From an uncultured virus (IMG/VR IMGVR_UViG_3300008120_000157) (Duplodnaviria; Heunggongvirae; Uroviricota; Caudoviricetes; Crassvirales), in the IMG/VR virus record IMGVR_UViG_3300008120_000157: a stretch of DNA of 20,000 nt. One strand, given 5' to 3'. Of this stretch, positions 1 to 20,000 are shown in pieces. A program made the position numbers and the translations under genes. Every line of letters starts with the position of its first letter. Position 1 is the first letter of the stretch. The notes under the pieces were generated by a model, which saw only the letters and a list, made by a program, of their open reading frames with translations, made no database searches and was not told where the DNA came from.

Positions 1-141
1 TTTTTTTATCTCTGTTGTAGGCTTTACATCTGGCATTTGAAAATTATTAAAAGCAAAAGCTTTGTGGGCAAGGTCTTCTCCCACTTGTTTTACTAACATT
101 TTCCATTCTTTACTGTTCTTATTGGGACAAGCTATAGCCAT
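1..141 (-). CDS. 5' part of a further cargo-module gene (partial, runs off the left edge): MAIACPNKNSKEWKMLVKQVGEDLAHKAFAFNNFQMPDVKPTTEIKK...
   Basis: Translated by hand; not in the ORF track. ATG at 141-139 lies 6 nt after the TAA of the 1664-aa ORF, and the frame stays open for 47 codons to the window edge. The C-P-N-x(4)-W-K-x-L start resembles N-termini I recall from giant crAss-like virion proteins. Confidence 0.8.
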   Translation of the reverse strand, partial: MAIACPNKNSKEWKMLVKQVGEDLAHKAFAFNNFQMPDVKPTTEIKK

Positions 142-147
142 TATAAA

Positions 148-3100
148 TTATTTACCACAAATTAACAAATATTTTTCATACATATCTTCATCCATTTCTC
201 TTGTTGCAAGGAATTCATCAGAGAAAGCACGATTAAATGCTTCCCAATCATCAGGTGAAGGTGTGAATGTATCTTTTTCTTGGAAACCAGAAGGTAGAGA
301 CTTTTTCTTAACAGCTGGAGATATTTTACTTGTATCTAGTTTATTAGTAAAAGGCTGAGCAGGTGTTTGAATACTTCTAAGCTCGTCTCTTACTTCCATA
401 AGTAATTTTGGAAACTCTTTGCCCCATTTAGTTTTATCTTGAGTATGTGTAAGAGTAGCGTTACCTGTAGCAAGTAGTTTAGCTAGAGCATCTGGATTTT
501 GTTCAAAAGATTCTTTTAGTAATTCTTTCATAATTCTAGAAGAATTTTTATCCCATTCTTTTGTATCTAATCCTGTAATTGTTCTGCCTAATGCTTTAGC
601 TTTTGCTCCTGTAACATTCATTAATTCTAGTACAATAGGTAATCTATCTCCTATACCCATAGATGAATATCTAAATTTAGCAGCTTGAAATGCTCCTTCT
701 ACTGTATTAAAAGTACCATGGATAGTCACGACACTTTTAAAAGGCCTAACAGCAAAATTACTTAACTCAGCATTTTCTCCTGTACCTGCATAAATATTAA
801 TAGTTGTGTTAGATAGTATACTAGGTTCTGTAGTAGTATCAAATCCTGTTAGAGTTGCTTTTATTCCTGGAGCAGGCGCAAAAAATACATCGTCTTGTAG
901 TGATTTTCTTTGTGTAGAATCGATCAAATCAATAGTTTCTTTAACTGCAGAAGCTAAAGCTGTACCTGCTTTAATATCTATACCTAAAGAATTTAAGAGT
1001 TGTAACAACAAATCTTTGAGTTTATCCATCATAGACTTGTCTTCTACTTTTACTTTATTTAACCATGCCTGGAATCCTTGGTCAGTAAGCGCCATAGTAA
1101 CAAACTCTGTAAGTTTGATAGCACCGTAGTATTTACTTAAACCTTTATCTGTAGTAAAAGGAGTTCTTGTAGCAGGGTCTGCTTTTGCCCAAGTATTAAA
1201 TTTTTCTATAAATTCATTTAACTCATTACGATTTCCTTGAGTTTCTAAATAATTAATATAACTTAACTGTAAAGCTTTTAGGTTATCAATAATCTTTACT
1301 TGTTCAGCAGTAAGTTTATCCATTCTACCTGCCTGATAATCTCTAATCGCCTCTCCTGTAAAAGTATGAATTAGTTCATGTGCTACAGTATTAGCAAGAT
1401 CGTTAACTGTTTTATGATTTTGATGATTTAAATTTATAAACAAAGTCTTAGTTGCATATTCATATCTGCCTCGAACACCAGCTTCTTTTACAAACTCAAA
1501 TTTAAATCCTTCTGGAAATATTAAACTATGAAGTTTTTCTAAAAGTAATTTGTTAGTAGTACTAACAGTAGGATCGGATAGTAGTCTATCAACTAGGTCA
1601 TCAAATGCTCGTTTACCTGACATGTTTGTATCTACACCTAGTTGATTAGGTGGAGTTTGTTGTACAGGATTGTTTACAATATTAGGATCAAATGTCTTAG
1701 TAGGTTTAACAAGAACACCTTGGATTGTGGTACCTGGAGCAACTACGCTTGGTTTGTTGTCTTTAATCTTAGGTTGATAAACAGGAACAACTACAGCATT
1801 CTGTGAGTTATACTGTGTAAAACCATAAGTACCTTGTAGTACAGGAATACGGTTGTATTTACGAGTAGATTCATCAAACTCGTATAATGCGTACTTAGAT
1901 TTATTATTCTTATTATCATCTCTGATAGTTAAGAAATGCGTCTGTGTCTCAGTCATATCTCCAGATACAGGATCTACAACACTTACAAAATTTCTTTCTA
2001 ATGCTTCTTTATCTAACTCAAATGATTCTGGAACTGTACTTACTTTACCTTTTAAGTCGCCAAGAGATATTGTTTTAGCAAGGTTTGGATTATTTTGAAT
2101 GTATTGACGAGTAAAACTACTAGGCATGCTATAAATAGGGTTGCCTAAATCGTCAACTATTCCACCAAAAGTACGTTCAAAATCAAAAGGAATTCCTTGC
2201 AGATAGTTGCCAAACCCTAAAGTTTTTAAGTATCCAATAGGAATATAGCGCATGTATTGTTTAGAACCTTGTATACCGCCTTCTAAGAAGGCCGCTGTAA
2301 TAAGATCTTGTGCAAGAAGTCTAGTAGTATAATCAATACCGTTAAAGTTTCCTAGAGGAACGTTTTTAGAAAGCAAATATGCAAAGCCTGCATAAATGCT
2401 GCGCTCGTCAAAATTAGCAGCATTACTAGACTCAAAGTTAATTCTTGAAACATCTCCATTACTGTTAAAGTTAAACGTAAGTTTATTTAAGAATTGATTG
2501 TTTTGATACCAAGGTTGAGTAGATAACTCTTGTAGTATAGTAGCAAGACTTTTGTTTTCACCTTCTTTATCGATAAATAATCTTGCTCTTTCTTCATCTG
2601 GATTGCCTAAAAATAAACTACTTCCTTCATTAGAATAAAAGTAAGATTTAATATCTTGGAAAATTTCTGTTTGTACATCGGATAACTTAGTGCTGCTAGC
2701 AATTACTTTATCTCCACTAGGAATATGTTTAAGAACTTCTTTAAATATTGTTTGAAATCCGTCTGTATTATACGGAAAATATGGAGCGTAAATATTATTA
2801 GCAAACATAGTTCCGTATTTAGAAGCATATCCACTAATAGTTGTTGGTACAAACTCTTTATTTTCTATTGTACCTAGTAGACTATTTGCATTAAATACAT
2901 TAGATAAAGGAAGGTTTTCAATCTGAGTTACTTTAGTATTAGTTTCTAACAAAGATTTGGGAATGCCTTTAGATGCAGTATTAATAGCTGATTGTATTTT
3001 CTTAATTTCTTCACCTATTCCATCAAGTTTTAAAAACTTATTTAAAATCATTAACTGTCCTATATTATAGTCAGTTGATTTAGTAGGATTAAATTTAGTC

Positions 3101-5142
3101 TCTTTTAGGTTTTCTAAAAGTTGTTCTCCAGACATGTCACCTAATTTTTCATAGGCTAACATTTGACTTTCAGAAGCTTCTGTTAATTTATTTTCAGGGT
3201 CGTATTTTTTACGAAGCTCCTGCATCAATTCTGCTTGGAAGTTAGCATTATATTTACTAGTAGTAGATCGATTAGCTTTTATTCGATCTAAGTACTCCCA
3301 AATGATGTCTTGAGTAATAAGCCCTGCTATATCTGTTTCTTCAAACCCAAACATTACCATAGCACGTATTGCGCCAAAAGTATCTGAGTTAATATTTAGT
3401 TTATCAAGAATCTGCTCTTTTTCGTTATCTACTGCAGTAGACTGTAGTGCTCGAATAATTGCTGATTTAAATTTAAGAGACTCTTTTTCTTCTTTAGTAA
3501 GCTCACGTTTTTCTGCTTTAGCTCTATTAATAAGAGCTTGAGATTTAAGAGTATATGGATTAGACATATCTCCTTTAGAAACAAACTCTCCAAATGTTGC
3601 TACAGGCATATTAGCTTCTGCTAACTCTTGTGCAGTAGGAATACGTGGATTCATTGGTGTACCAAATAATTCTACATACGCTTCGTCATTAAGATTTTGA
3701 TAAACTAAATCTTTGCCTTGTGCATTAGCATTAAAAGTAGAATCAAGAGAAAATGATCCTACACCATCTTTACCTGCTGTTGCATTAATGTATTTAGTAC
3801 GTTGATAAATATCAGAAAGAATAGTAACAGGTGTAGGGTTTACACCCTTCTCGGAACGTATTTTATTTACTTCTGCAGCTAGACCTGTAAATTCTCCAGA
3901 ACCATCAAGTGCAATAATACTAGCAATCACTTCAGGGTTAGTACTAGTCATTACATCTAAATGGATATCTAAGATCTTATTCTGTTTAGCTGCTACATAA
4001 GAACGATTTAAGATCGATAAGCGATCTATTAATGTTTCGATTTGACCAGGCTCTAGAAATTTTTTATCCAAACTTCTTGTGATAATTTCATTAGCTTGCG
4101 ACGCCAAAGTAGAATCAATATCATCTTTTTCTTCATTACTGTCTATAGTATTCTTAATGTAATCTCTTAGTATTTTATTTTCTTCTTTTGAAAGCTTTAA
4201 TCTTTCTTGTATATCGTTTAAAGTTTCTTTAGCAATCTTAATTTGCGCTTCTATTTTTTTAGGATCAGATAGAAAGTTAGTATATAGCTTGCCATTTTGA
4301 TAAAAATGATTGTACATGTATGTGTACAATTTATCAACGTCAAAGTCGGACCCCATTTGTTTAGTAAAATCTCTAGGCGCTAAGACTAAATCCCCCATTG
4401 CTTCTGGTAAAAATCCTACTATTTCTACAGCAGCCATAGAGTTACGGCTTTGAGTAGGAATACGGAATCCAAATAGTTGAAGTAGTTTTTCAGGAACTTT
4501 AGTAGTGTCTAATAAACCATCTTTTGTTAAAAATTCCTCTATGTTCAAGATTTCTCCACGCTCATTGCGAAACTTAAATGGAATCATAATTTGAGCAGGT
4601 AACATTTTACCTGTTGCAGGATCTACACGCAAAGGTTGTAACCCTTTAGTAGCATCAAATTTATTTGTGAATACGATATCAGAATTCTTTAAATCTCCTG
4701 CTGCAGCATCACCTTCTTTAATTTTAATCCCTTCTTCAGAGCCGAGTACATAAGAATTACCCGTAAACTTTTGTTTAACTACTTTATTACTAACGAGTGA
4801 CGTAAGTAAACTTTCAAATTTATCTGCATAAGGAGATGCCCACAAAGGAATTTTAAAGTTTTGTTTGTCTTCTGTTAATTCTAAAGCAGACAACATGTTA
4901 GGCGCATATCCTTGGCGAGTTTTGATTTCTTGAGCAAGAATCTCAGCAAGTTTAACTGCGGGAATTGTAGTTCTTTCTATGATTTTTTTGTCAGCAACTT
5001 TAACTTTAGAGCTATCTTTTTTAAATCCTGGAAGACTCAGCTTACCGTTAGCAACTAAAGTATCTAAAAGGCCTTCATTTAAAAGTGCCTTAAATTCATT
5101 TTCAGAGACCCAACGACCCCCTACAAAGTACTGACAAGCCAT
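148..5142 (-). CDS. Virion RNA polymerase, catalytic (beta'-like double-psi-barrel) half, fused to a zincin-like metallopeptidase domain and a C-terminal NADAR domain (1664 aa)
   Basis: Motifs GFRIPTQ (RIPTQ at 4450-4464) and GSDFDVDKLY (DxDxD at 4333-4347), plus a later AVDNEK motif, match crAss-like / phi14:2 gp66-type RNAPs. HELIH lies at 1366-1380 and NADAR motifs lie near the C-terminus. Confidence 0.92.
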   Translation of the reverse strand: MACQYFVGGRWVSENEFKALLNEGLLDTLVANGKLSLPGFKKDSSKVKVADKKIIERTTIPAVKLAEILAQEIKTRQGYAPNMLSALELTEDKQNFKIPLWASPYADKFESLLTSLVSNKVVKQKFTGNSYVLGSEEGIKIKEGDAAAGDLKNSDIVFTNKFDATKGLQPLRVDPATGKMLPAQIMIPFKFRNERGEILNIEEFLTKDGLLDTTKVPEKLLQLFGFRIPTQSRNSMAAVEIVGFLPEAMGDLVLAPRDFTKQMGSDFDVDKLYTYMYNHFYQNGKLYTNFLSDPKKIEAQIKIAKETLNDIQERLKLSKEENKILRDYIKNTIDSNEEKDDIDSTLASQANEIITRSLDKKFLEPGQIETLIDRLSILNRSYVAAKQNKILDIHLDVMTSTNPEVIASIIALDGSGEFTGLAAEVNKIRSEKGVNPTPVTILSDIYQRTKYINATAGKDGVGSFSLDSTFNANAQGKDLVYQNLNDEAYVELFGTPMNPRIPTAQELAEANMPVATFGEFVSKGDMSNPYTLKSQALINRAKAEKRELTKEEKESLKFKSAIIRALQSTAVDNEKEQILDKLNINSDTFGAIRAMVMFGFEETDIAGLITQDIIWEYLDRIKANRSTTSKYNANFQAELMQELRKKYDPENKLTEASESQMLAYEKLGDMSGEQLLENLKETKFNPTKSTDYNIGQLMILNKFLKLDGIGEEIKKIQSAINTASKGIPKSLLETNTKVTQIENLPLSNVFNANSLLGTIENKEFVPTTISGYASKYGTMFANNIYAPYFPYNTDGFQTIFKEVLKHIPSGDKVIASSTKLSDVQTEIFQDIKSYFYSNEGSSLFLGNPDEERARLFIDKEGENKSLATILQELSTQPWYQNNQFLNKLTFNFNSNGDVSRINFESSNAANFDERSIYAGFAYLLSKNVPLGNFNGIDYTTRLLAQDLITAAFLEGGIQGSKQYMRYIPIGYLKTLGFGNYLQGIPFDFERTFGGIVDDLGNPIYSMPSSFTRQYIQNNPNLAKTISLGDLKGKVSTVPESFELDKEALERNFVSVVDPVSGDMTETQTHFLTIRDDNKNNKSKYALYEFDESTRKYNRIPVLQGTYGFTQYNSQNAVVVPVYQPKIKDNKPSVVAPGTTIQGVLVKPTKTFDPNIVNNPVQQTPPNQLGVDTNMSGKRAFDDLVDRLLSDPTVSTTNKLLLEKLHSLIFPEGFKFEFVKEAGVRGRYEYATKTLFINLNHQNHKTVNDLANTVAHELIHTFTGEAIRDYQAGRMDKLTAEQVKIIDNLKALQLSYINYLETQGNRNELNEFIEKFNTWAKADPATRTPFTTDKGLSKYYGAIKLTEFVTMALTDQGFQAWLNKVKVEDKSMMDKLKDLLLQLLNSLGIDIKAGTALASAVKETIDLIDSTQRKSLQDDVFFAPAPGIKATLTGFDTTTEPSILSNTTINIYAGTGENAELSNFAVRPFKSVVTIHGTFNTVEGAFQAAKFRYSSMGIGDRLPIVLELMNVTGAKAKALGRTITGLDTKEWDKNSSRIMKELLKESFEQNPDALAKLLATGNATLTHTQDKTKWGKEFPKLLMEVRDELRSIQTPAQPFTNKLDTSKISPAVKKKSLPSGFQEKDTFTPSPDDWEAFNRAFSDEFLATREMDEDMYEKYLLICGK
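375..803 (-). other. NADAR (YbiA-like) domain within the 1664-aa ORF
   Basis: LSNF, FNTVEGAFQAAK, AKALGR, WD...IMKELLKESFEQNP...LLATG and LLMEVRDEL follow the NADAR/YbiA motif order. Confidence 0.85.
930..1605 (-). other. Zincin-like metallopeptidase domain within the 1664-aa ORF (boundaries approximate)
   Basis: RGRYEYATKTLFIN strands precede VAHELIH (HExxH). The downstream LTEFVTMALTDQGFQAWL helix supplies a candidate third ligand Glu (1105-1107). Confidence 0.8.
4333..4347 (-). other. RNAP catalytic Mg2+-binding loop DFDVD (aa 266-270 of the 1664-aa ORF)
   Basis: DxDxD motif about 39 aa after an RxP motif. It is the DFD[IV]D variant of canonical DFDGD, as reported for phi14:2 gp66 (DFDID). 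Confidence 0.92.
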
Positions 5143-5147
5143 AGCAA

Positions 5148-5624
5148 TTATTTATTAAGTAGTTCTTGATCGAACAACAACATGTTATCAGTAAGCGCTA
5201 AACGAGCAAGTAAATCCATGTACTCACCTACTGCTCCTACTTGATGAGTAGTAAAGTCTTGTAGTAACAATCTTACTTTCAGAGAAAGATCCATTTTGCA
5301 AGCAGATTCTTCGTATGCCATAAGCAAATCACGCTCCATTTCGTATGCCATCTCTAAAGCACCTTTAACATCTGTGCAATCACACTTCACAGCATCTAAA
5401 GCATCAGTAGAAAGTTCTCCGCCTAAATCGTTGCAGAACTTTTCGATTTTATTATAATGATCTCGTTCTCCTAAAGACTCTTCAGTAAATAATTTTTCAG
5501 CGCCAAAGTAACCATTAGTCTTCATACGATTTGCTAAATGCAAATACGTATGAGAAGCAGTAAGCTCTAGACGGCCAAATTTATTGAGTTCTTTTTGTTC
5601 AATATCGGTAAGTAGCTTTTCCAT
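5148..5624 (-). CDS. Ferritin (non-heme FtnA-like four-helix bundle), 158 aa
   Basis: ELTASHTY, GYFGAEKLF, ERDH, ALEMAYEMERDL and HQ motifs match the ferritin ferroxidase pattern, and the length is typical. The ATG overlaps the upstream stop (TAATG at 5626-5622). Confidence 0.88.
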   Translation of the reverse strand: MEKLLTDIEQKELNKFGRLELTASHTYLHLANRMKTNGYFGAEKLFTEESLGERDHYNKIEKFCNDLGGELSTDALDAVKCDCTDVKGALEMAYEMERDLLMAYEESACKMDLSLKVRLLLQDFTTHQVGAVGEYMDLLARLALTDNMLLFDQELLNK

Positions 5625-8600
5625 TAATCACAATTTTTAAACTGGTCATTCTCGTCGAAGAAGTAATTAATCTTAGAGTCTACTAAGCCTTCAACGATTT
5701 TATCAAAGTTTTGATTTATAAAGTTAATTCTTTCTAGGTTATCAGCACCTATTTCATCTTCAAATTCTTGTAAAGCAGTCTGTTTCTTAATCGGCGATTT
5801 GATTTTAGAGATAGCATCCATCTTTTCTGCTATCTTCTCAACCATTTCTGGATCGGCTTCTACTTCATTAAATTGTTCTAGAACATTGTCTTCAGTAATT
5901 TCTTCGTAAAGACCTAAACGTTTAGCAAGTTTTTTCTGATTGTACTCAAATAAATCTTGATAAGCACTGTTATATTCTTTAACTAGGTCTTTACCTGTTT
6001 TGTCTTTAGTTACTTGAACATCTAACAAGTCTACAAATAGTAATGCTCGTTCTTGGGTACCTACGTTGATTTCAGCTTTTTCTCGTTTATACGGTACATC
6101 TTGCTGAATTCTAAAGTTGCTACGATCTAGTACTAAAGTGTTTTCAGGTTTAACTTCAAAGTTATCTACAACATTGCCGTTGTCATCAAAAGTCTTAATT
6201 TCACTAGCAACAGCACCTACTTTATTAGCAGTACCAAAAGATGCTCTAATAAATTTAGGTTGTCCTCCTGCAGTGATATCTTTAGATACACTTTCTTCGT
6301 ACTTTTCTAATCCTTGTCGGATTTTGTCTATTTGTAAGCCTGCAGTAAACTGTGGAATAAGTGGAAAACTCGAAGATTTAATGTATACACGGCGGTCTGC
6401 ATTGTCTTCTACACTTGTCATGTTACCCACATACACAGGTTTCATAGGCTGCATTACTAGTCCTAGTTCTTCATATGTAAGTTTTGTGTTGTTATTTATA
6501 ACACCTGCAGATTGCTGAGTTAGCTTCTTGTTAATAGTATTGTATTGGAAATCAGTAAGACGTCCTAATTGGTTTAATACATATAAGTGTTCTTTCCAAG
6601 TAGTGTATTCCTGAGCATCTGATCCTTCTATCTCTCCATAACCTTTTTTGCCGTCACTGTAATCTTTGTTAATCTTTTCAAAAAATTCTTTTTGTACAGA
6701 ATCTTTAAGGTTATTACTTTTAAGTTTTTTATCTTGTAAGAATACTTGTAAGTATTTATTGTTAGCACTATCTGCCAACTCTAATCCTGGTGCAATATCT
6801 CCAGCAAGACGTTTACCCATATTGATAAAAGTTGCTGATAGATTTTCTAAAGTAGTGTTACCATCTTTAAACTTAGCATATAATGCAGGGTCTCCAGTAA
6901 ACAACTTCATCATTTCGCTGTTAGCAATAAGAGAGTTAAATACATAATCTGTAGCAGCAAAACGTACTCTAGCAGCTTCTCCTACACCTTTAGCAATGTT
7001 GGACATGTAAGCAGAGTCTAAGAAAGTATACTTGTCAGTTACACGTCCTTTAGCGTCTTTTATAGTTTGTCCAATTCCAAGATTGTTCCAGTCTTCTAGC
7101 TTTTTATCTACAAGAGTGTTAAGAGTTTCTTGTAAGTAGTCGTATACAGCTTGTTTAACTTCTGGGTTAACTACAGCATCATTTCCTGAACGAACAAGGT
7201 CTCTGTAGTTTTGCATAGTGCCGTTTACTTCTACTATTAGATCGTTTAATGCTGGGAAGAAATAAAAATATTCAGGTTCGTATCCTGCAATATCTGACTT
7301 GCCTTCTAACACTGCGGCACGGATTCTGTTAATCTCTGGCTGTACTGTTGCTTGGTAAAGACTTTCTAAGTTAGCATCAGTAACACCTCCTGGCGTCACA
7401 ACTACTTGTTGGGCTAAAGCATTGACTACTAACATCGTAGTCTTATCCGACATTGTAGGATAGAAATAAGAAACTTTTCTGTAGGTCTTACCGTCAGCAA
7501 CTTGTTTGCTTCCGTTAAAGAACATACCTAGTTTTACTAACTCATGTTCGTCGACAGTAAGTTTGTTTAGCTTACGGTCTTCTTGTGACTTAGTATACTG
7601 ACGTTTAAGTGCTTCAAGAGATAGATAGTCTATACCTAAAGAACTTCTCATTAAATCTCCTGTTTCTCCATCTTGAGTAAGCGCTGCCAACCATAAGCTA
7701 TCTCTTGTAAATGAGATTTTTTTAAGCTTGTCAATTAAGTCTTGATTAATAAACTTTTTATTATCACTGTCGTAACTAGTAAGATCGCGCATGCGATTTA
7801 CTAGATAATTATTGTTACCGTAAGAATAAATAGTCTTAGTACCTGCACGGAAAGAATTACTAAAATTACTAGCAGTATTAATTGCTTCTAATTTAGATAA
7901 TGCTTTGATTGCAGAATCTTTTAACAGTGACTTATCAGCTATTTTATCGGGGTTATTAGCAATAGCTTTAAGTTCTTCTTTTAGTACTTTTACTAACCCA
8001 GAACTAGTATTAAAGAGTGCTTCCCAAGATTTACGGCCAGAATTGTTGTATTTACCAGCACGTAAATCTTTATAAGTAGCATCAGACAGTACAATACCAA
8101 AATTACCTAACCATTTAGCTAATTCTTCATTTGTTACGTCTTTAGGATTTTTTTCCCATTCAGAAGCAATAGTTACTATATCATCTACTACTTCCTTATT
8201 GTATATATAATCACCTGCTTCGTTAACTAAAATAAGATTATTACCTGGTTTTAAAAGATTGCTACCCCAATAATCTCTGAGGCGCTCTTCCATAGCACTA
8301 GAATTACTTGACCAACGTTGTAGAGAATAATTACCATATTGATCTTTATTCCACATAATAAACTTCATACCGATATGATGTTTAGCCATATCTGATACAA
8401 ACTCATTTTTAATTCTTTCTGGAGAATTTTCTATGTTGTCAATAACAGTTTGTAACCATGGGAATGCTTCAGTATATAATCCTAAAGTATCTAACATTAT
8501 ATCTAAGTCGGCAGGTTTATTTGCCAATAACATATGGAGAGTGTCGTAAACTTGATCAAAAGGAATGATTTCTGGGAAACCTAATTCATTAGTCATTACG

Positions 8601-13768: not shown

Positions 13769-16348
13769 TTACTTTAAGTACCTCTGTTCTGCAATCTGTA
13801 CCTTTAAACCGTTTATATCACTAGACTTTAATCCAGTATCAACTTTTCCTGCAGGACTAATAACATAAGCTTTATAAATAGGATCGACGTTATTGCCTAC
13901 ATATTCTTTAACTAATCTAATATTTACACCTGTTTCTCCTGTTGGAATAGTTTCTAGTACTGCAGTTCTATTAGTATTATTTACTTCAGCTGCTTCAGCA
14001 CTTTGTCTTGTTACGCTACTACTAGTCATTAAATTATAAAGACCTACTGCAGTTGTTTGAAATGTTTGATTTGCCAATGGATCAGAATCTTTTAGTTGAT
14101 AGTTCATTTGAGCAGTTCTACGTAAAATTTTCTCAAATAATGCTTCTTGTCCAGGTTTAGCCATTACTTCAACAGTATTAGAGCGTGTGTCCCCATCTTC
14201 ATCTTTATAAGTATAAGGTATCTCCATAAATACTACATTACCACGCATACCAATTTTAGGAGTTTTACCTTCTGCTAATTTAGTACCTCCTGCCATTCTT
14301 CCTTCTTCATCAAATCCTGGAACATTTGCCCAACCTCTTCCTGTTAAAGGAGCAAATCTAGTTAGTTCACTAGCATTTAATAATTCTTGTCCTAGTGCAG
14401 CATCTACAACTTTATCTCCTACAATACGGGAACCCATTTCATTTCCTGAGAAATTTTCTTTATATGCTTTATCTTTAGCTAAGTTAATTGTACCACCTAA
14501 TTCTTTAGAACCTGCTCTCGAAAAATCAAACCCGTTTTCTACAGCTTCTGTTAGACTTTTAAAGCCATAAGCTTTTGCAATATTATTAGCTGACAGCCTG
14601 TATTCTGCAGGCATGTAAGTTTCTTTAGCTGAACGAGAAGGAGTATATTCTACTACTCCACTTTCAATTAATTTTTCTACTGTTGTTCCCCAACTTTTTG
14701 CTAACTTTTCTACAGTACCTACATCAGTTAAAGTTTTTTCTTTTCCTAATGTTTGTATTTCTTCTTTAAATCCTTTTAATGAAGTAACACTGCCAGCAAT
14801 TTGTTTAATTTGATCGTCAGCATCTCTAAAACGATTATAGTTTTCTTGCATTCCTTCGAGAGTTGTGCCTACCATTTGAGCAGTTTTAGTATTGCTTAAC
14901 TCATTAAATACAGATGCAGAAGTACTTTGTTTAATGCCAGTAGCTAATCCTGCATTATATAATTTTCTGTGGAAATCAGTAGCATCTTTAGATTGTTGGA
15001 AGATAGCAAAAATTTGTTGCTGACGTGCAACAGCCATTGCTGGGTTAGCTTCCATATTTTTACGCAATTCAGAACCTTTAGCTCCCATTGAAAGAGCTCT
15101 CATATTTCCTCCAGCGATATTATTAATTTTTGTAATATTTGGTACTAAGCTTTTAGTTGCTAAATATCTATTTTGTTCTAAGTCTACACTTACTAATTCT
15201 TTAGTAGTAGGAGTAGTTCTACCTACTGTACCTTCTAATGTAAAATCTTTTCCTGAACCTGATCCACTAGTTGGTATTGCTTGGAAAGAATAATCAGTGC
15301 TTATATTATTTACTTTAAAAATTTGACCTAACTCAGCAGCATCATATTGATTAGCCATGTAATCTCTTGTATATAAAGCTTGAATAATATCTGGATTAGG
15401 GTTATTCTTTTGGTCTAATAAAAGCTGTTTAGTTTCTAATAGTTTTTGGTATTCTTCTGTATCAGTTTTTTTATCTGCTTCAGCTTTTTTAATTAATCTT
15501 TCATTAGCTGATAAATTTTTATCAATTAAATTATTTGCTAAGTTGTAGAAAGAAGCGCCTTCATCTTTAGCATATAAATAATCTTTAAAGTTATAAGCAG
15601 CATTTTCTTGAAGCCATGGCTTAAATCTATCAAGACTCATCATATAAGCTTCTACTGCTTGATCTATTTCTTCAGGTTTTAATTGCTCAAAAGAACTTTT
15701 AACAAATTGAGCTTTTTGAGAAGTAGGTTCAATGCCTAAAGTTCTTAAAGCTCCATCCCATTCTTTAGCTTTCATTGCACTAGCGACTTTATATTTAGTA
15801 TCGTCAAAGTCTTTTTGCATATCTGTGATTCTTCCTACTTTACCAGTAATAGGATTATAAGTTCCTGTAGGATTTTCTGCATCTCTTTTATAAGCAGTAC
15901 CTCCTACATTTTCAAATTTTCGAAGCTCGTCGGTTCTCCATTGCAAATATTGCTGCTTAGTAATATCTCCTTTTGCTACACGAGCAACTTCTTCTTTATC
16001 CCGTTCTGTAAAAGTTTTATAATTTGTTTCTAGTGCAATACGTTCTGGATCTTCTAACCATAATCTATTAAGCTGTTTAAGTTTACTAGCAGCTTGTGTA
16101 TAGTTTTTACTTTCCATTAAGTTAGTTACTAACTCATCTCGTTTAGTTCTATATAATTGTTCTAAAGCTTTTGCCTTTTCCTTTTCATAAGGAAATTCTA
16201 ATGACGTTGCTTTAACATCAGCTTCTTCAATAGCAGCTTTTGTTAAGTCATATTTTTCCTGCATTTTCATTAATGGCTCTGCAAATGCCATTAAATTTAA
16301 AGGCTTATATTGAAATTGAGTAGGAGTACTATACGGAGTAATTGCCAT
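13769..16348 (-). CDS. crAss-like virion cargo/internal protein of unknown function (859 aa)
   Basis: Long ORF with no Cys. The N-terminus MAITPYSTPTQFQYKPL...MQEKYD resembles the cargo gene that typically lies between cargo protein 1 and the RNAP genes. It starts 2 nt after the upstream stop. Confidence 0.7.
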   Translation of the reverse strand: MAITPYSTPTQFQYKPLNLMAFAEPLMKMQEKYDLTKAAIEEADVKATSLEFPYEKEKAKALEQLYRTKRDELVTNLMESKNYTQAASKLKQLNRLWLEDPERIALETNYKTFTERDKEEVARVAKGDITKQQYLQWRTDELRKFENVGGTAYKRDAENPTGTYNPITGKVGRITDMQKDFDDTKYKVASAMKAKEWDGALRTLGIEPTSQKAQFVKSSFEQLKPEEIDQAVEAYMMSLDRFKPWLQENAAYNFKDYLYAKDEGASFYNLANNLIDKNLSANERLIKKAEADKKTDTEEYQKLLETKQLLLDQKNNPNPDIIQALYTRDYMANQYDAAELGQIFKVNNISTDYSFQAIPTSGSGSGKDFTLEGTVGRTTPTTKELVSVDLEQNRYLATKSLVPNITKINNIAGGNMRALSMGAKGSELRKNMEANPAMAVARQQQIFAIFQQSKDATDFHRKLYNAGLATGIKQSTSASVFNELSNTKTAQMVGTTLEGMQENYNRFRDADDQIKQIAGSVTSLKGFKEEIQTLGKEKTLTDVGTVEKLAKSWGTTVEKLIESGVVEYTPSRSAKETYMPAEYRLSANNIAKAYGFKSLTEAVENGFDFSRAGSKELGGTINLAKDKAYKENFSGNEMGSRIVGDKVVDAALGQELLNASELTRFAPLTGRGWANVPGFDEEGRMAGGTKLAEGKTPKIGMRGNVVFMEIPYTYKDEDGDTRSNTVEVMAKPGQEALFEKILRRTAQMNYQLKDSDPLANQTFQTTAVGLYNLMTSSSVTRQSAEAAEVNNTNRTAVLETIPTGETGVNIRLVKEYVGNNVDPIYKAYVISPAGKVDTGLKSSDINGLKVQIAEQRYLK

Positions 16349-16350
16349 GA

Positions 16351-19300
16351 TTATGAATTTTTACCTTTATTTGCTCTACGTGCTGCAGCTGCTGCATTTA
16401 GTTTATCTGCAATACTTATATATCTAAAATTACCTGCATAGTCAGGAGCTATTGTTTGCAAATATTTTTCTTGTAAATCTGTGCTAGATAATCCTTGAGC
16501 AATTTCACTAGCTTGTGTTAAACCTGCAGCTAACATATTTTGTCTAGCAGATAAAGCTTGATCATTATACTGTTGAATAGCTAAATCTTGTGTCATATTA
16601 TTAGACTCTACTTGAGCATTAAATTTATCTGCTTCCATTTTTTGAGCCTTGTCAAAGTTTTCTTTTTGTGCATAAATATCACGAATAGCTTGTTGACGCA
16701 TATTAGCCATGTTGCCTAATGTAGCTAAGTAACTTCCTGCACCAGGTGCTGCATTTTTAGCAGCTTGCATTGCAGTACCATAAGCACTGCGGACTGCTGC
16801 TAATTGCGGATCTACGTTCATTTCATAAGGAGAAATTTTAGCACGAGACTGATAGTCGCTAACATCTAATTGATTTACTTTACCAAAAAGACCACGACCA
16901 ATATTATAAAGTGCAGGTAATGCAGAAACTCCCGCTAAAATAGGATTTTGTTCTATAGATTCTAAACCTGTTTTTTTATCCATTTTAGTGAGCATTTTTC
17001 GTAATTCAGATGCCCACTCATCATCACTCATTCCTTCAGGTTTTACTAGACCATTACTTGCAGCAGCATTCATAATAGCTTCGTCTTCTTGTGCAAGTTT
17101 TTCTACTTCTAATAAATCAGTATCATCTCCTTCTTCAGCAACAACTTCAGTAGTAGATACATCAATAGGGTTACTTAAACTAGCATAATGTTCTTCTAAA
17201 GCTGCTTTTGCCATTTCAATATCTTGACTGTCAAACTTTCCATCTCCATCTGCATCAGCTCCTTCTGGCATAAAACTTTGAAGGATTATAGGATTATTTA
17301 ATGCTTCCTCAATTGTAAGACTAACGGGAACTCCTTGAATATTAAATGTAGCTTTTGGTCCAGTAATAGGATCTAAAGAACTTCCTTCTGCAAACTGATT
17401 AGTAAACATACCAGTAGTAGGTGCTCCTAAATAGCCTCCCTGTGCCATGAAATTTCCTGCGACATTCATCGCTTTAGTAATAAATGGGTTTTGAGGAGCG
17501 TTCATTAATTTAGCAGCAGCTTTACTTCCTTCAAGAGCTCCTTCTGGGATTACTTTTTTATCTGGAGAACCACCAAAGAATGTACCGTACATTGAACCTA
17601 ATTGTCCTACACCTTGTGCTACTTTATCTGTTTTTTCTCCTGTACCTGGCAAAGCAGCAACTCCGCTAGCTAAACCTTCTACACCTTCACTAATAGCTGA
17701 TTTAGTAGTAGCACCACCCGTTAGTACTGCAGAACCAAGAGCACCTGCTGCATTACCAAAACCTCTTGCAGCATCTAGACGACCTGCCTGACGTTCATCA
17801 ACATCTCCTATTTGAGATAGTTTTTCGTATCCTTTGTCTGTAAGATTGTCAGTAGTACCAAAAGTAGCTGCATCTAGTACACCTTCTCCGATACCATAAA
17901 GCGCAGAACCGATACCACGTAGGGCCATCATGCCTCCACCTGCACCGTACATATGACCGCCCATGTTATACATCTTACCCCCCATGCTCATTATACCTTG
18001 TTGTTGCATTTGTTGCATCATTGCTGGGTCTATTTCTTGTGGCATTCCTGCTGGAGGAGCCATTTGTTGTTGCTGCTGCATTGCCATCTCGTCTGCCATT
18101 GCTTGTTGGTCCGCCATAGCTGCTTGATCTACTATTTGTAAATCAGGATACTTAGATTGCATTTCTGCAACAGCTGCTTGTTTTTCAGACTCTTTTTGCT
18201 GCTCTTGCGCTTGCATTAAGTTTTCTAAATCACGTTGAATAGCAACTTGTTCAATAGTATCATTTTCACGACGAGAATTTGGACGATTTAATTTCTTAGA
18301 AATATCAGCAAATGTTTTTCCTATATCTCCTTTAGGCAAATCGTATAGAGTAGCAGTTTCTTTAGATACTTTAATCTCATCTGAAAAAATATAATCTGCT
18401 GCATTAAGTTTAGTTTCACCTTGTTCTACAAGATTTAATTTACCATCTTGTGCAAATCCTTGTGGAATGCCTCCTAGCGGATTTATTTCATGGGAACCTC
18501 CTTCATTAAATTCAGTAAGTTGTCCGCCATCAGCAAACGCTCGACCTCCCATGGAGTACATATGGCCTCCCATAGCATGTTTAACATTATGTGCTTTACC
18601 ACCAATACTAACCTTTTGGTTACCTGGTGTTCTTTCAAATTCTCCTGTAGCATGTCCATATGCTAACCATGCTTTGTATGCGGCTGGTGATTTAAAGTTC
18701 ATAGCGCCTCCTTGTTTAAAATTATTTTCTCCCAATCCTTCTGGATCGTTAGGGTCATATATAATAGGTTCTACATTAGAACCTGATTTTGTTGATGGTA
18801 CATAAATATCTTCTGCGTTTTTATTCCAACGTTTATCTATTGGGCTAGCATTTACTTTAGGACCAAAATCTCCATAAGGATCTCCTCCTTGTATTTGTAA
18901 ATTTTCTTCGCCGCCTTTATCTGCTCTTCCTAAGAATGAAGTAAGAGGCGACATATTAATGTCTGGCATATTAATATGAGGAGTCTCTATTTGTTGTAAG
19001 GGAAATCTAATTCCTACTTCACCCGAAACATGAGGGCGAAACATAGTTCCTAATGTTTTATCCATAGGTCCCGCACCTGTAGTATTAGTACTATTATTGC
19101 TGTTTTGATTAGGATCATAGTTAGGGTCTTGTCCTATAGTATTAGAAATATTAGCAGCATTTTTAGATGCAGCCCCAAACCCACCTGTTAAAGCAGCTTT
19201 ACCATAAAAAGACATAGGAAAATCCTTAAATGCTTTAGGTCTATATTCTCCTTCAGCACGAATTCCCCAACCAAGTTTTGCTCCTTTTGTTGAATTTAAA

Positions 19301-20000
19301 GTAAAACCTGTATAAGGTTCGATAATGCCTGATGGTCTACCTGCTTTTACTAAACCATTTCGATAAGGATTTCCAAAAGGAAATACACTTCCTACTTCTC
19401 CATGCAATCCTAAACCTGTTGACGGAGCATACTCTCCACCAAATTCAATACGTGGCATAGCGCTTTCAAAAATAGCGCCGCCTCCAACTTCTTGTCCTCC
19501 TTTAACAACTTTACCTTGCCAACCTATTTTACCTCCTGCTATAATATTTTGAGCATTAGGAGCTCCTCCGAGTAAAGCATCTTTGTTATTAGTAATATTT
19601 GTGATACTATTCTGATAAGCCTGTTCTTCAGGACTTAATGTAGTATTAAATGGTATACTTGGATTATACTGTTGCCCTGCATAGGCACTAGCATAAAATC
19701 CTGGAGCCTTTTTGCCTAAACCAGAATCTGTCTCAATACCTGCAATATAACCAGGCTTAAAGTTTCCTACTAATGCATTAGTATAAAAGGGACTAGCATA
19801 AACATTAGCTGTTGGATTTTTCTTATAAAATTTTTCCATAAGATCCTCAATAGGACCCCCTTCAGCGTAAGTTTGAATATTAGAAGCTTTAAAACTACTC
19901 ATCTTACCACCATGACTCATTTGATTTTTAATCTTTTTTTCTTGTGCTAACATTTCTTTTGTAGGTTTCTTTCCAGAACCTGCATTAGCACGAATATTAT
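16351..20000 (-). CDS. crAss-like cargo protein 1-type ejected protein, probably 5'-truncated by the window edge (>1215 aa)
   Basis: The frame is open upstream of the track's Met at 19953 to the window edge (..NIRANAGSGKKPTKE-MLAQEKK..), so the true start is probably outside the window. It contains the block GGSHE..GG..VEQGE..YIFSD..TFADISK, which I recall from crAss-like cargo proteins, plus Gly-rich hydrophobic segments and about 11 xxGG motifs. Confidence 0.75.
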   Translation of the reverse strand, partial: NIRANAGSGKKPTKEMLAQEKKIKNQMSHGGKMSSFKASNIQTYAEGGPIEDLMEKFYKKNPTANVYASPFYTNALVGNFKPGYIAGIETDSGLGKKAPGFYASAYAGQQYNPSIPFNTTLSPEEQAYQNSITNITNNKDALLGGAPNAQNIIAGGKIGWQGKVVKGGQEVGGGAIFESAMPRIEFGGEYAPSTGLGLHGEVGSVFPFGNPYRNGLVKAGRPSGIIEPYTGFTLNSTKGAKLGWGIRAEGEYRPKAFKDFPMSFYGKAALTGGFGAASKNAANISNTIGQDPNYDPNQNSNNSTNTTGAGPMDKTLGTMFRPHVSGEVGIRFPLQQIETPHINMPDINMSPLTSFLGRADKGGEENLQIQGGDPYGDFGPKVNASPIDKRWNKNAEDIYVPSTKSGSNVEPIIYDPNDPEGLGENNFKQGGAMNFKSPAAYKAWLAYGHATGEFERTPGNQKVSIGGKAHNVKHAMGGHMYSMGGRAFADGGQLTEFNEGGSHEINPLGGIPQGFAQDGKLNLVEQGETKLNAADYIFSDEIKVSKETATLYDLPKGDIGKTFADISKKLNRPNSRRENDTIEQVAIQRDLENLMQAQEQQKESEKQAAVAEMQSKYPDLQIVDQAAMADQQAMADEMAMQQQQQMAPPAGMPQEIDPAMMQQMQQQGIMSMGGKMYNMGGHMYGAGGGMMALRGIGSALYGIGEGVLDAATFGTTDNLTDKGYEKLSQIGDVDERQAGRLDAARGFGNAAGALGSAVLTGGATTKSAISEGVEGLASGVAALPGTGEKTDKVAQGVGQLGSMYGTFFGGSPDKKVIPEGALEGSKAAAKLMNAPQNPFITKAMNVAGNFMAQGGYLGAPTTGMFTNQFAEGSSLDPITGPKATFNIQGVPVSLTIEEALNNPIILQSFMPEGADADGDGKFDSQDIEMAKAALEEHYASLSNPIDVSTTEVVAEEGDDTDLLEVEKLAQEDEAIMNAAASNGLVKPEGMSDDEWASELRKMLTKMDKKTGLESIEQNPILAGVSALPALYNIGRGLFGKVNQLDVSDYQSRAKISPYEMNVDPQLAAVRSAYGTAMQAAKNAAPGAGSYLATLGNMANMRQQAIRDIYAQKENFDKAQKMEADKFNAQVESNNMTQDLAIQQYNDQALSARQNMLAAGLTQASEIAQGLSSTDLQEKYLQTIAPDYAGNFRYISIADKLNAAAAARRANKGKNS
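17929..17991 (-). repeat. Three tandem 7-aa repeats: MSMGGKM-YNMGGHM-YGAGGGM
   Basis: Seen directly in the translation; 21-nt period. MGGHMY is shared with the cluster at 18517-18579. Confidence 0.8.
18517..18579 (-). repeat. Three tandem 7-aa repeats: HAMGGHM-YSMGGRA-FADGGQL
   Basis: Seen directly in the translation; 21-nt period. Confidence 0.8.

Follow-up and report, generated by a model that had tools for sequence, protein, structure and literature searches.

The cargo and RNA polymerase block

The window analyzed here is a stretch of 20,000 nucleotides (nt) from a crAss-like phage contig (uncultured virus, Crassvirales; IMG/VR record IMGVR_UViG_3300008120_000157), whose full length of 58.9 kb was also analyzed. 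It is filled by the cargo and RNA polymerase (RNAP) block typical of crAss-like phages, with all large open reading frames (ORFs) on the minus strand. The subject of this analysis is a set of three proteins in this block, of 2702, 1664 and 1335 amino acids (aa), whose few cysteine (Cys) residues lie at the very ends where one protein faces the next. Pfam profiles identified CrAss_Ring_1, CrAss_Ring_2, crAss_MUZ and crAss_CARG1 upstream, which matches the order expected for the Crassvirales RNAP block. An extra gene, encoding a 976-aa protein, is inserted between the muzzle gene and the gene of cargo protein 1 (C1); otherwise the order ring, muzzle, cargo 1, cargo 2, RNAP is kept.

A tblastn search with the 1664-aa protein retrieved the ‘RNA polymerase’ of IAS virus (4e-16), the ‘putative RNAP catalytic subunit’ of crAss002 (7e-11) and gp32 of FpV4 (3e-78), the nearest isolates being FpV4-group Flavobacterium phages (26% identity). 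In FpV4 the equivalents of the 2702-aa and 1664-aa proteins form one 4287-aa protein, and a single PHROG profile of 4401 positions spans the end of the former and most of the latter, which identifies the window proteins as pieces of one giant protein. Judged by this homology, the 2702-, 1664- and 1335-aa proteins are three separately translated pieces (pieces 1, 2 and 3) of the giant crAss protein of about 5000 aa that contains the RNAP. Piece 1 aligns to positions 76-2697 of a fused 5151-aa relative. Packaging of the window proteins in virions and their ejection are predicted from homology to phi14:2 and crAss001. PDB sequence searches with the polymerase piece of the window did not retrieve the solved phi14:2 gp66.

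Cysteine placement in the genome

Translation agreed with a preliminary description of the window that had located the cysteines of these proteins. All four Cys codons lie at the minus-strand positions given there (5630-5632, 5134-5136, 157-159 and 127-129). The 2702-aa protein has one Cys, at residue 2701 (terminal FKNCD), the 1664-aa protein has two, at residue 3 (MACQY) and residue 1662 (terminal LLICGK), and the ORF after it starts MAIACPN, with Cys5; no Cys occurs in the 859-aa protein or in those 1215 aa of the upstream cargo protein that fall within the window. The description had also treated the 2702-aa and 1664-aa genes as consecutive, which was wrong: a 158-aa ferritin-like ORF (5148-5624) sits between them.

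Over the whole contig, the six cargo proteins total 8772 aa and contain 5 Cys, every one no more than five residues from an end. At the Cys frequency of the genome’s other ORFs (0.96%), about 84 would be expected, and the terminal position of all five has a probability of ~1.5e-11 under uniform placement. Chance is excluded as the source of the Cys placement in this genome. The fifth Cys belongs to the 976-aa protein, which lies outside the window (G000:C1:44641-47571, minus strand, identical to L084:142-3072) and has its sole Cys as the last residue (LNKNC). Pfam recognizes an ADP-ribosyltransferase exoenzyme domain in this protein (1.3e-6), which is probably injected as an additional enzyme.

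Conservation of the terminal cysteines

Conservation was assessed in the best 120 homologues of the 1664-aa protein (38-100% identity, 1213-2550 aa). A Cys occupies residue 3 or 4 in 109 of them; the other 11 do not have the conserved N-terminal motif, and nine of those resemble truncated gene calls. At the opposite end, Cys is found at residue -1 to -4 in 118 of the 120, the other two being without the conserved tail. Further Cys are missing from most of these homologues despite very different inserted domains, and one homologue with four extra Cys contains intein and homing-endonuclease domains. In an alignment of 26 diverse homologues, C3 and C1662 are invariant down to 40% identity. In piece 3, C5, G21 and P37 are invariant and W13 nearly so (19 homologues). 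The 1664-aa protein ends in a short conserved peptide, preceded by a variable linker and variable passenger domains, and these domains are all Cys-free.

Cysteine pairs follow the splitting of the giant gene

An alignment-based scan gave 79 related loci, which formed 70 clusters after near-identical ones were merged. Junctions between ORFs of at least 400 aa were scored (n = 119), Cys in the last 6 residues upstream or in the first 8 residues downstream counting as positive. This carried out across relatives the co-occurrence check that the preliminary description had called for, and it bore out the prediction: Cys was present on both sides of 64 junctions, on neither side of 49, on the N side only of 6 and on the C side only of none (Fisher p = 3.8e-27, relatedness uncorrected). 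The class with Cys on neither side consists mostly of junctions of an upstream 450-950-aa cargo protein with the giant protein. It also includes three Cys-less breaks within the giant protein, namely an in-frame stop followed by ATG (L005:562-9501), a 38-nt overlap between two ORFs that use different frames (L040:2845-17470) and a 250-nt gap (L079:2735-13535); these breaks may reflect sequencing errors, readthrough, frameshifting or other recoding.

The fully fused forms (n = 11, 4799-5920 aa) have no Cys in nine cases and one internal Cys each in two. Cut points were mapped by BLAST to the fused 5151-aa reference, and the automatic zone calls were curated by eye before tree building. The cuts fall in at least three zones of this reference, at ~1250-1700 (zone 1), 2640-2790 (zone 2) and 3800-3990 (zone 3). 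The zone 2 cut is restricted to the clade of the window, and zone 3 comprises at least two cut points; phi14:2 is cut upstream of the zincin motif and the window downstream of it. Wherever the protein is continuous across a zone, no Cys pair is found at that zone. Two-piece systems have exactly one Cys per protein (e.g., L012, L036 and L048).

Across 73 chains (148 pieces, 376,264 aa), 143 of the 226 Cys lie in terminal windows and 83 are internal, corresponding to 69 per 1000 terminal positions versus 0.22 per 1000 inside. Fusion scars, that is, residual Cys at former junctions, were sought among the 83 internal Cys and none was evident, these being scattered or inside inteins. On a FastTree phylogeny (516-column core, 65 rows), the minimum number of changes of split state is seven for zone 3, six for zone 1 and three for zone 2. 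The Cys pair tracks the split in nearly all independent contrasts, and none runs in the opposite direction.

These comparisons strongly support, at the level of sequence, the pairing of the C-terminal Cys of one piece with the N-terminal Cys of the next. The original proposal of such pairing holds in that splitting of the giant gene goes with presence of the pair and fusion with its absence; it needs qualifying, as unpaired terminal Cys exist. Nor does the rule extend to cargo proteins in general: it applies to the pieces of a single split giant protein, neither C1 nor the 859-aa protein having any Cys and junctions of upstream cargo with the giant protein never carrying Cys.

Junction anatomy and end modules

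The anatomy of the ends was examined in 68 junctions. Counted in residues from the end, the C-side Cys is found at position 1 in 10 junctions, 2 in 31, 3 in 21, 4 in five and 5 in one; the N-side Cys is residue 3 in 30 junctions, 4 in 13, 5 in 19, 6 in five and 8 in one. Lys stands just before the C-side Cys in 31 of the 68, and Pro just after the N-side Cys in 24. A frequent tail pattern is ..EE(L/F)..(L/I/M)(K/R)(K/R)C, and two head types recur: CPNKNSxEWKxL....G in zones 1 and 3, and CxYFVNGxWxSE in zone 2 and also in zone 3 of L030 and L043.

BLASTP of the zone 2 junction revealed that the relatives L012 and L017, fused there, lack both the ~90-aa tail before the cut and the ~50-aa head after it, indicating that the zone 2 cut arrives with an inserted pair of end modules. 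In zone 3, the identity of the head and tail modules in fused forms is 20-25%, too low to tell whether the modules were kept. AlphaFold2 modeling of residues 1-400 of piece 3 (mean pLDDT, the predicted local distance difference test, 73.7) placed Cys5 in a ten-residue coil overhang, followed by a confident compact domain with pLDDT of 87-93 over residues 11-100. Comparison of this model of the start of piece 3 with the PDB gave no fold match, the best Foldseek E-value being 0.11.

At the first junction of the window, the ferritin-like gene shares one base of its start with the stop of piece 1, and 5 nt separate its end from the start of piece 2. It occupies the zone 2 junction in every examined relative split there. 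Ferritin-like genes (Pfam Ferritin, 1e-12 to 1e-27) recur in or beside the giant block (L026:14160-14654, L033:15175-15687, L038:14313-14831, L041:15221-15718 and L062:9019-9513). Their site is the zone 2 junction in the clade of the window, the zone 3 junction in another clade and a position behind the last piece in L062. They contain 0 to 4 Cys and are thus not Cys-purged like the cargo. These genes may be passengers that landed where the operon offers its only gaps, or they may serve in redox chemistry.

A separate observation concerns the last piece, in which, in several lineages, a C-x4-6-C pair lies ~105-125 residues before the C-terminal end (L026:16496-20758, L031:17723-22471, L038:16486-21507 and L067:9680-13417). 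This pair may form a small local loop.

Features of the window and domains of the polymerase piece

The coordinates of the genes, end modules and motifs are collected in Table 1.

Table 1. Genes, end modules and motifs of the cargo and RNA polymerase block in the 20,000-nt window.
Feature	Position	Strand	Evidence and cysteine content
Cargo protein 1 (C1)	16351..19998	-	Pfam crAss_CARG1 6.2e-30; 1236 aa in genome, N-terminal 21 aa beyond window; 0 Cys
859-aa cargo protein, C2 position	13769..16348	-	0 Cys
Piece 1 of split giant protein, 2702 aa	5624..13732	-	phrog_16227 ‘virion structural protein’ 4.4e-70; sole Cys 2701
Piece 1 C-terminal tail, ~90 aa ending FKNCD	5627..5896	-	Cys codon 5630-5632
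Ferritin-like gene, 158 aa	5148..5624	-	Pfam Ferritin 3.4e-12, Rubrerythrin 2.4e-6; 4 internal Cys
Piece 2, 1664 aa, RNA polymerase catalytic piece	148..5142	-	phrog_16227 6.1e-68, tblastn to crAss RNAP subunits; Cys3 and Cys1662 only
Piece 2 N-terminal head, ~50 aa, MACQYFVGGRW start	4993..5142	-	Cys codon 5134-5136
DFDVD catalytic motif, two-barrel RNA polymerase, residues 266-270 of piece 2	4333..4347	-	D266, F267, D268 and D270 invariant in 26 homologues
HExxH zincin-like motif, residues 1255-1259 of piece 2	1366..1380	-	H1255, E1256 and H1259 invariant (26-member alignment)
NADAR domain, variable passenger domain ahead of conserved Cys tail	415..777	-	Pfam NADAR 6.2e-13; PDB 2b3w YbiA 3e-7
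Piece 2 conserved C-terminal tail (...DWEAF...EKYLLICGK)	151..270	-	Cys codon 157-159
Start of piece 3, 1335 aa in genome, MAIACPNKNSKEWK...	1..141	-	Sole Cys is Cys5, codon 127-129

Profile searches matched no family to the 859-aa protein. The role of DFDVD as the catalytic motif is taken from the phi14:2 preprint (10.1101/2020.03.07.982082). In the PDB, a profile built from the alignment of the zincin region matched projannalysin as well as an ‘internal virion protein’. The latter match involves residues ~1215-1330 of piece 2 (window ~1150-1500, minus strand) and PDB 9sfn_G ‘Internal virion protein’ (1337 aa, E = 2.9e-5), and hints, by sequence similarity, at a link to ejection proteins of other short-tailed phages.

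The passenger slot between the polymerase/zincin core and the Cys tail differs among relatives (homologues P0004-P0120), with NADAR in the window and a Dda/RecD-like helicase, PF10263, PF18760 or PF13532 elsewhere; the helicase matched Dda in the PDB at 2e-26 with a profile. In two relatives, an intein with a LAGLIDADG-type endonuclease, whose first residue is Cys, splits the polymerase motif AGKDG|VG (L014:10001-15208, residues 376-615; L017:1832-14959, residues 3047-3344). Intein Cys make up most of the internal Cys of these two proteins.

Cultured and named phages

The terminal Cys are also found in isolated phages. In phi14:2, the single Cys of gp67 (1797 aa) is its final residue, the crystallised polymerase gp66 (2180 aa) contains no Cys other than Cys3 and Cys-2, and gp65 (1421 aa) none other than Cys3. 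The crAss001 proteins follow suit, with Cys-3 only in gp47, Cys5 only in gp49, and Cys5, Cys-9 and one internal Cys in gp50. Both sets, phi14:2 gp67/66/65 and crAss001 gp47/50/49, resemble the window in having homologous pieces with a matching terminal-Cys signature; they differ in that the first cut is in zone 1, whereas that of the window is in zone 2, and in that their junctions are without a ferritin gene. The crAss001 gp47 gene lies on the strand opposite to gp50 and gp49, and on the evidence of this arrangement gene adjacency is unnecessary for the rule, the pairing being kept across opposite strands. FpV4 gp32 (4287 aa) has Cys-2 only, and gp33 starts MAC, with Cys3 and one internal Cys.

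In the gut genomes of IAS virus, cr116_1 and crAss002, the terminal Cys are kept in a looser pattern. Internal Cys are numerous in some RNAP pieces of these three genomes, reaching 10 per piece in IAS virus and cr116_1, and few in aquatic relatives and crAss001. An effect of habitat (oxygen) on internal Cys is possible, three gut genomes being a small sample.

A proposed disulfide thread and its alternatives

The terminal-Cys rule and its tie to gene fission and fusion are direct observations on these genomes. We consider it probable that the pieces are joined end to end by disulfides, one per junction, and are packaged and ejected as a single thread. The same signature forms a disulfide in phage A4; for crAss phages the bond is inferred, as are the moment at which it forms and the part it plays when cargo is packaged and ejected. 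Each cut would be bridged by one Cys in the last 1-5 residues upstream and one in the first 3-8 residues downstream, and the inter-chain disulfide would form once the pieces meet in the particle, away from the reducing cytoplasm. The result would be a linear thread running 2702 aa, 1664 aa, 1335 aa with a uniform N-to-C direction. With Cys at the extreme ends, only short stubs of a few residues would remain at the joints, and with Cys absent elsewhere there would be no loops or branches, so that the partly unfolded thread could pass the narrow tail; short stubs and the absence of loops would thus suit one-way transit of a narrow channel. The cytoplasm of the host would then reduce the bonds and free the pieces.

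Published data on crAss001 provide the setting for such a thread: its cargo must partly unfold to pass constrictions of <50 Å, N-to-C ejection is expected for cargo protein 1, and the order of ejection is probably set by cargo packing and interactions, the cargo proteins being unresolved in that structure (PMC10172136). The crAss001 virion contains inter-subunit disulfides in the tail and at the portal vertex (PMC10172136).

A wider reading, which we regard as possible and put forward only tentatively, is that a portable ‘cut-and-stitch’ connector is made up of the terminal Cys and the short modules at head and tail. The polyprotein could then be cut at different points, genes could settle in the gaps, and passenger enzymes (NADAR, Dda-like helicase, ADP-ribosyltransferase) could be hung on, while the particle would still receive one stoichiometric, linear, redox-cleavable chain from which reduction in the host would free and activate the RNA polymerase.

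Several observations weigh against a disulfide-linked chain of paired ends. The cytoplasm in which particles assemble is reducing. Independent contrasts on the tree are few, with four on supported branches for each of zones 3 and 1 (sign-test p ~0.125 and 0.25, respectively). Some ends are unpaired. The 976-aa protein of this genome ends in Cys yet faces the Cys-free C1; two close loci encoding its relatives were found, and at 72% identity one of these relatives again has a C-terminal Cys and no other. When the genome was scanned for a partner, no Cys-poor protein with an N-terminal Cys turned up; a 291-aa protein starting MTTICHSK has 5 Cys and no Pfam match. In cr116_1, gp051 ends in Cys and the next large protein, gp049, is without an N-terminal Cys; this phage has three C-type and two N-type ends. 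In crAss002, gp32 has Cys-2, whereas gp33 has no Cys before residue 35; in FpV4, the Cys5 of gp30 is without a counterpart. A clade of four loci (L026, L031, L038 and L041) has N-side Cys without an extreme C-side Cys, and in three of them (L026, L038 and L041) the upstream piece carries instead a CxC ~25 residues from its end. Finally, some pieces of IAS virus (L089), cr116_1 (L090) and crAss002 (L088) contain 7-10 internal Cys.

The evidence for pairing is silent on its chemistry, and the ends might instead dock through their head and tail modules, with the thiols sharing a metal ion such as Zn or forming another non-disulfide link that needs no oxidation. Assembly in a reducing cytoplasm and the anaerobic life of gut crAss phages would fit such a link, and docking is plausible given the extra modules (~90 aa and ~50 aa) at the junction of the window, missing in fused relatives. 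However, two thiols alone make a poor metal site, with no conserved His or second Cys alongside, the single solved case with such a signature (A4) is a disulfide (PMC12002296), and crAss001 virions do contain disulfides (PMC10172136). We regard this alternative as unlikely.

About equally unlikely, in our estimate, is that each terminal Cys acts alone, as a tether to the portal, tail ring or muzzle or in a homodimer, leaving the pieces unjoined. The unpaired terminal Cys of the 976-aa protein, cr116_1 gp051, crAss002 gp32 and FpV4 gp30 speak for independent tethering, as does the use of Cys for inter-subunit bonds by structural proteins of the crAss virion (PMC10172136). It would leave unexplained, however, why Cys on the C side only occurs in 0 of the 119 junctions and why both Cys are lost jointly on fusion, and it sits poorly with the two-piece systems that have exactly one Cys per protein (L012, L036 and L048).

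Shared descent or chance, with Cys purged from ejected proteins and left only at unconstrained ends, has very little probability. Suppression of Cys in ejection proteins of Schitoviridae is published (PMC11445570), and the small number of independent contrasts leaves some room for it, but the terminal Cys do not vary even where the sequence around them has diverged to 38-40% identity, they accompany the cut in at least three different zones and vanish in 9 of the 11 fused forms, and their density differs between terminal and inside positions (69 versus 0.22 per 1000).

Translational bypassing or other recoding, in which the Cys codons would serve as take-off and landing sites and yield one fused product with a single Cys per joint, is comparably improbable. 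There is indeed a Cys codon on either side of every junction, and the gap can be short, as between the 1664-aa and 1335-aa genes (~30 nt), but the partner gene lies on the opposite strand in crAss001 and cr116_1, the 477-nt ferritin-like gene fills the first junction of the window, 1-4 codons follow the C-side Cys in 58 of 68 junctions, and phi14:2 gp66 has been annotated and studied as a separate protein (preprint 10.1101/2020.03.07.982082). Bypassing of the T4 gene 60 type, which needs one mRNA and a short non-coding gap, was rejected in view of the opposite strands and of the ferritin-like gene in the gap. Split inteins were likewise rejected, since the C-side Cys has just 0-4 residues behind it and the N-side Cys 2-7 in front, while intein halves need ~100 aa and ~35 aa; the window’s proteins gave no intein Pfam match, and the true inteins of relatives lie within piece 2 (P0119, L014 and L017).

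Comparison with known systems

The closest precedent for the proposed disulfide is cyanophage A4 (Anabaena phage A-4L), in which a 3.6-Å cryo-EM (cryogenic electron microscopy) map of the pre-ejectosome contains a disulfide between gp27 Cys1715 and gp26 Cys5, and whose authors propose a chain reaction on ejection (PNAS 2025, PMC12002296). According to the A-4L genome record, Cys1715 is the sole Cys of gp27 (1717 aa) and Cys5 the sole Cys of gp26 (1114 aa). The A4 pair is thus like the window in having adjacent genes for large internal, ejected proteins with a sole Cys near the facing C- and N-terminal ends. BLASTP detected no homology of gp27 or gp26 to the window proteins (best E-values 0.94 and 0.30), and the likeness is one of mechanism, not of family. 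A4 differs from the window in having one link instead of a chain of at least two, in the absence of an RNA polymerase and in belonging to another phage family. The available text of the A4 paper does not contain the word ‘cysteine’ and, in that text, draws no tie to gene fission or fusion and states no general rule (PMC12002296).

The three RNAP-associated proteins known from phi14:2 are reported to be fused into one polyprotein in some phages, and the fused polyprotein is described as ‘likely cleaved’ (preprint 10.1101/2020.03.07.982082). The RNAP proteins of phi14:2 and crAss001 have been found in virions by mass spectrometry (for crAss001, PMC10172136). The word ‘cysteine’ is absent from the available texts of the crAss001 paper (PMC10172136) and the phi14:2 preprint (10.1101/2020.03.07.982082), and the former, as far as its text is available, does not discuss the ends of cargo proteins.

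Ejection proteins of N4-like phages (N4 gp50, DEV gp71-gp73) show near-total loss of Cys, which has been ascribed to envelope passage (PMC11445570). These phages share with the window giant virion RNA polymerase and ejection proteins depleted of Cys; they differ in having no Cys at all, with no terminal pair reported, and in a polymerase that is a single chain of a different fold class. Cysteines are unmentioned in the available text of a 2026 N4 paper.

The literature search, with subscription journals and supplements outside its scope, found no paper on the terminal Cys of crAss cargo proteins. The earlier statement that no published description was known therefore stands for crAss phages, but needs qualifying in view of the structural precedent in cyanophage A4 (PMC12002296).

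Disulfides that switch with the redox environment are familiar from other viruses. In papillomaviruses and polyomaviruses, capsid disulfides form after assembly and are reduced on entry, serving as an uncoating switch. Unlike the bonds proposed here, they join capsid subunits instead of ejected cargo and are non-terminal.

Implications

The crAss-like phages include the most abundant viruses of the human gut. If the proposed thread exists, a redox-cleavable covalent tether would answer how an RNA polymerase made of several pieces is loaded and delivered in the right amounts and order. It would also offer one explanation for the Cys-free interiors, the strict terminal placement of Cys and the free interchange of split and fused genes, and would count against the published suggestion of cleavage in fused forms. 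The terminal Cys might further be used as a natural tag by which foreign proteins are loaded into phage particles.

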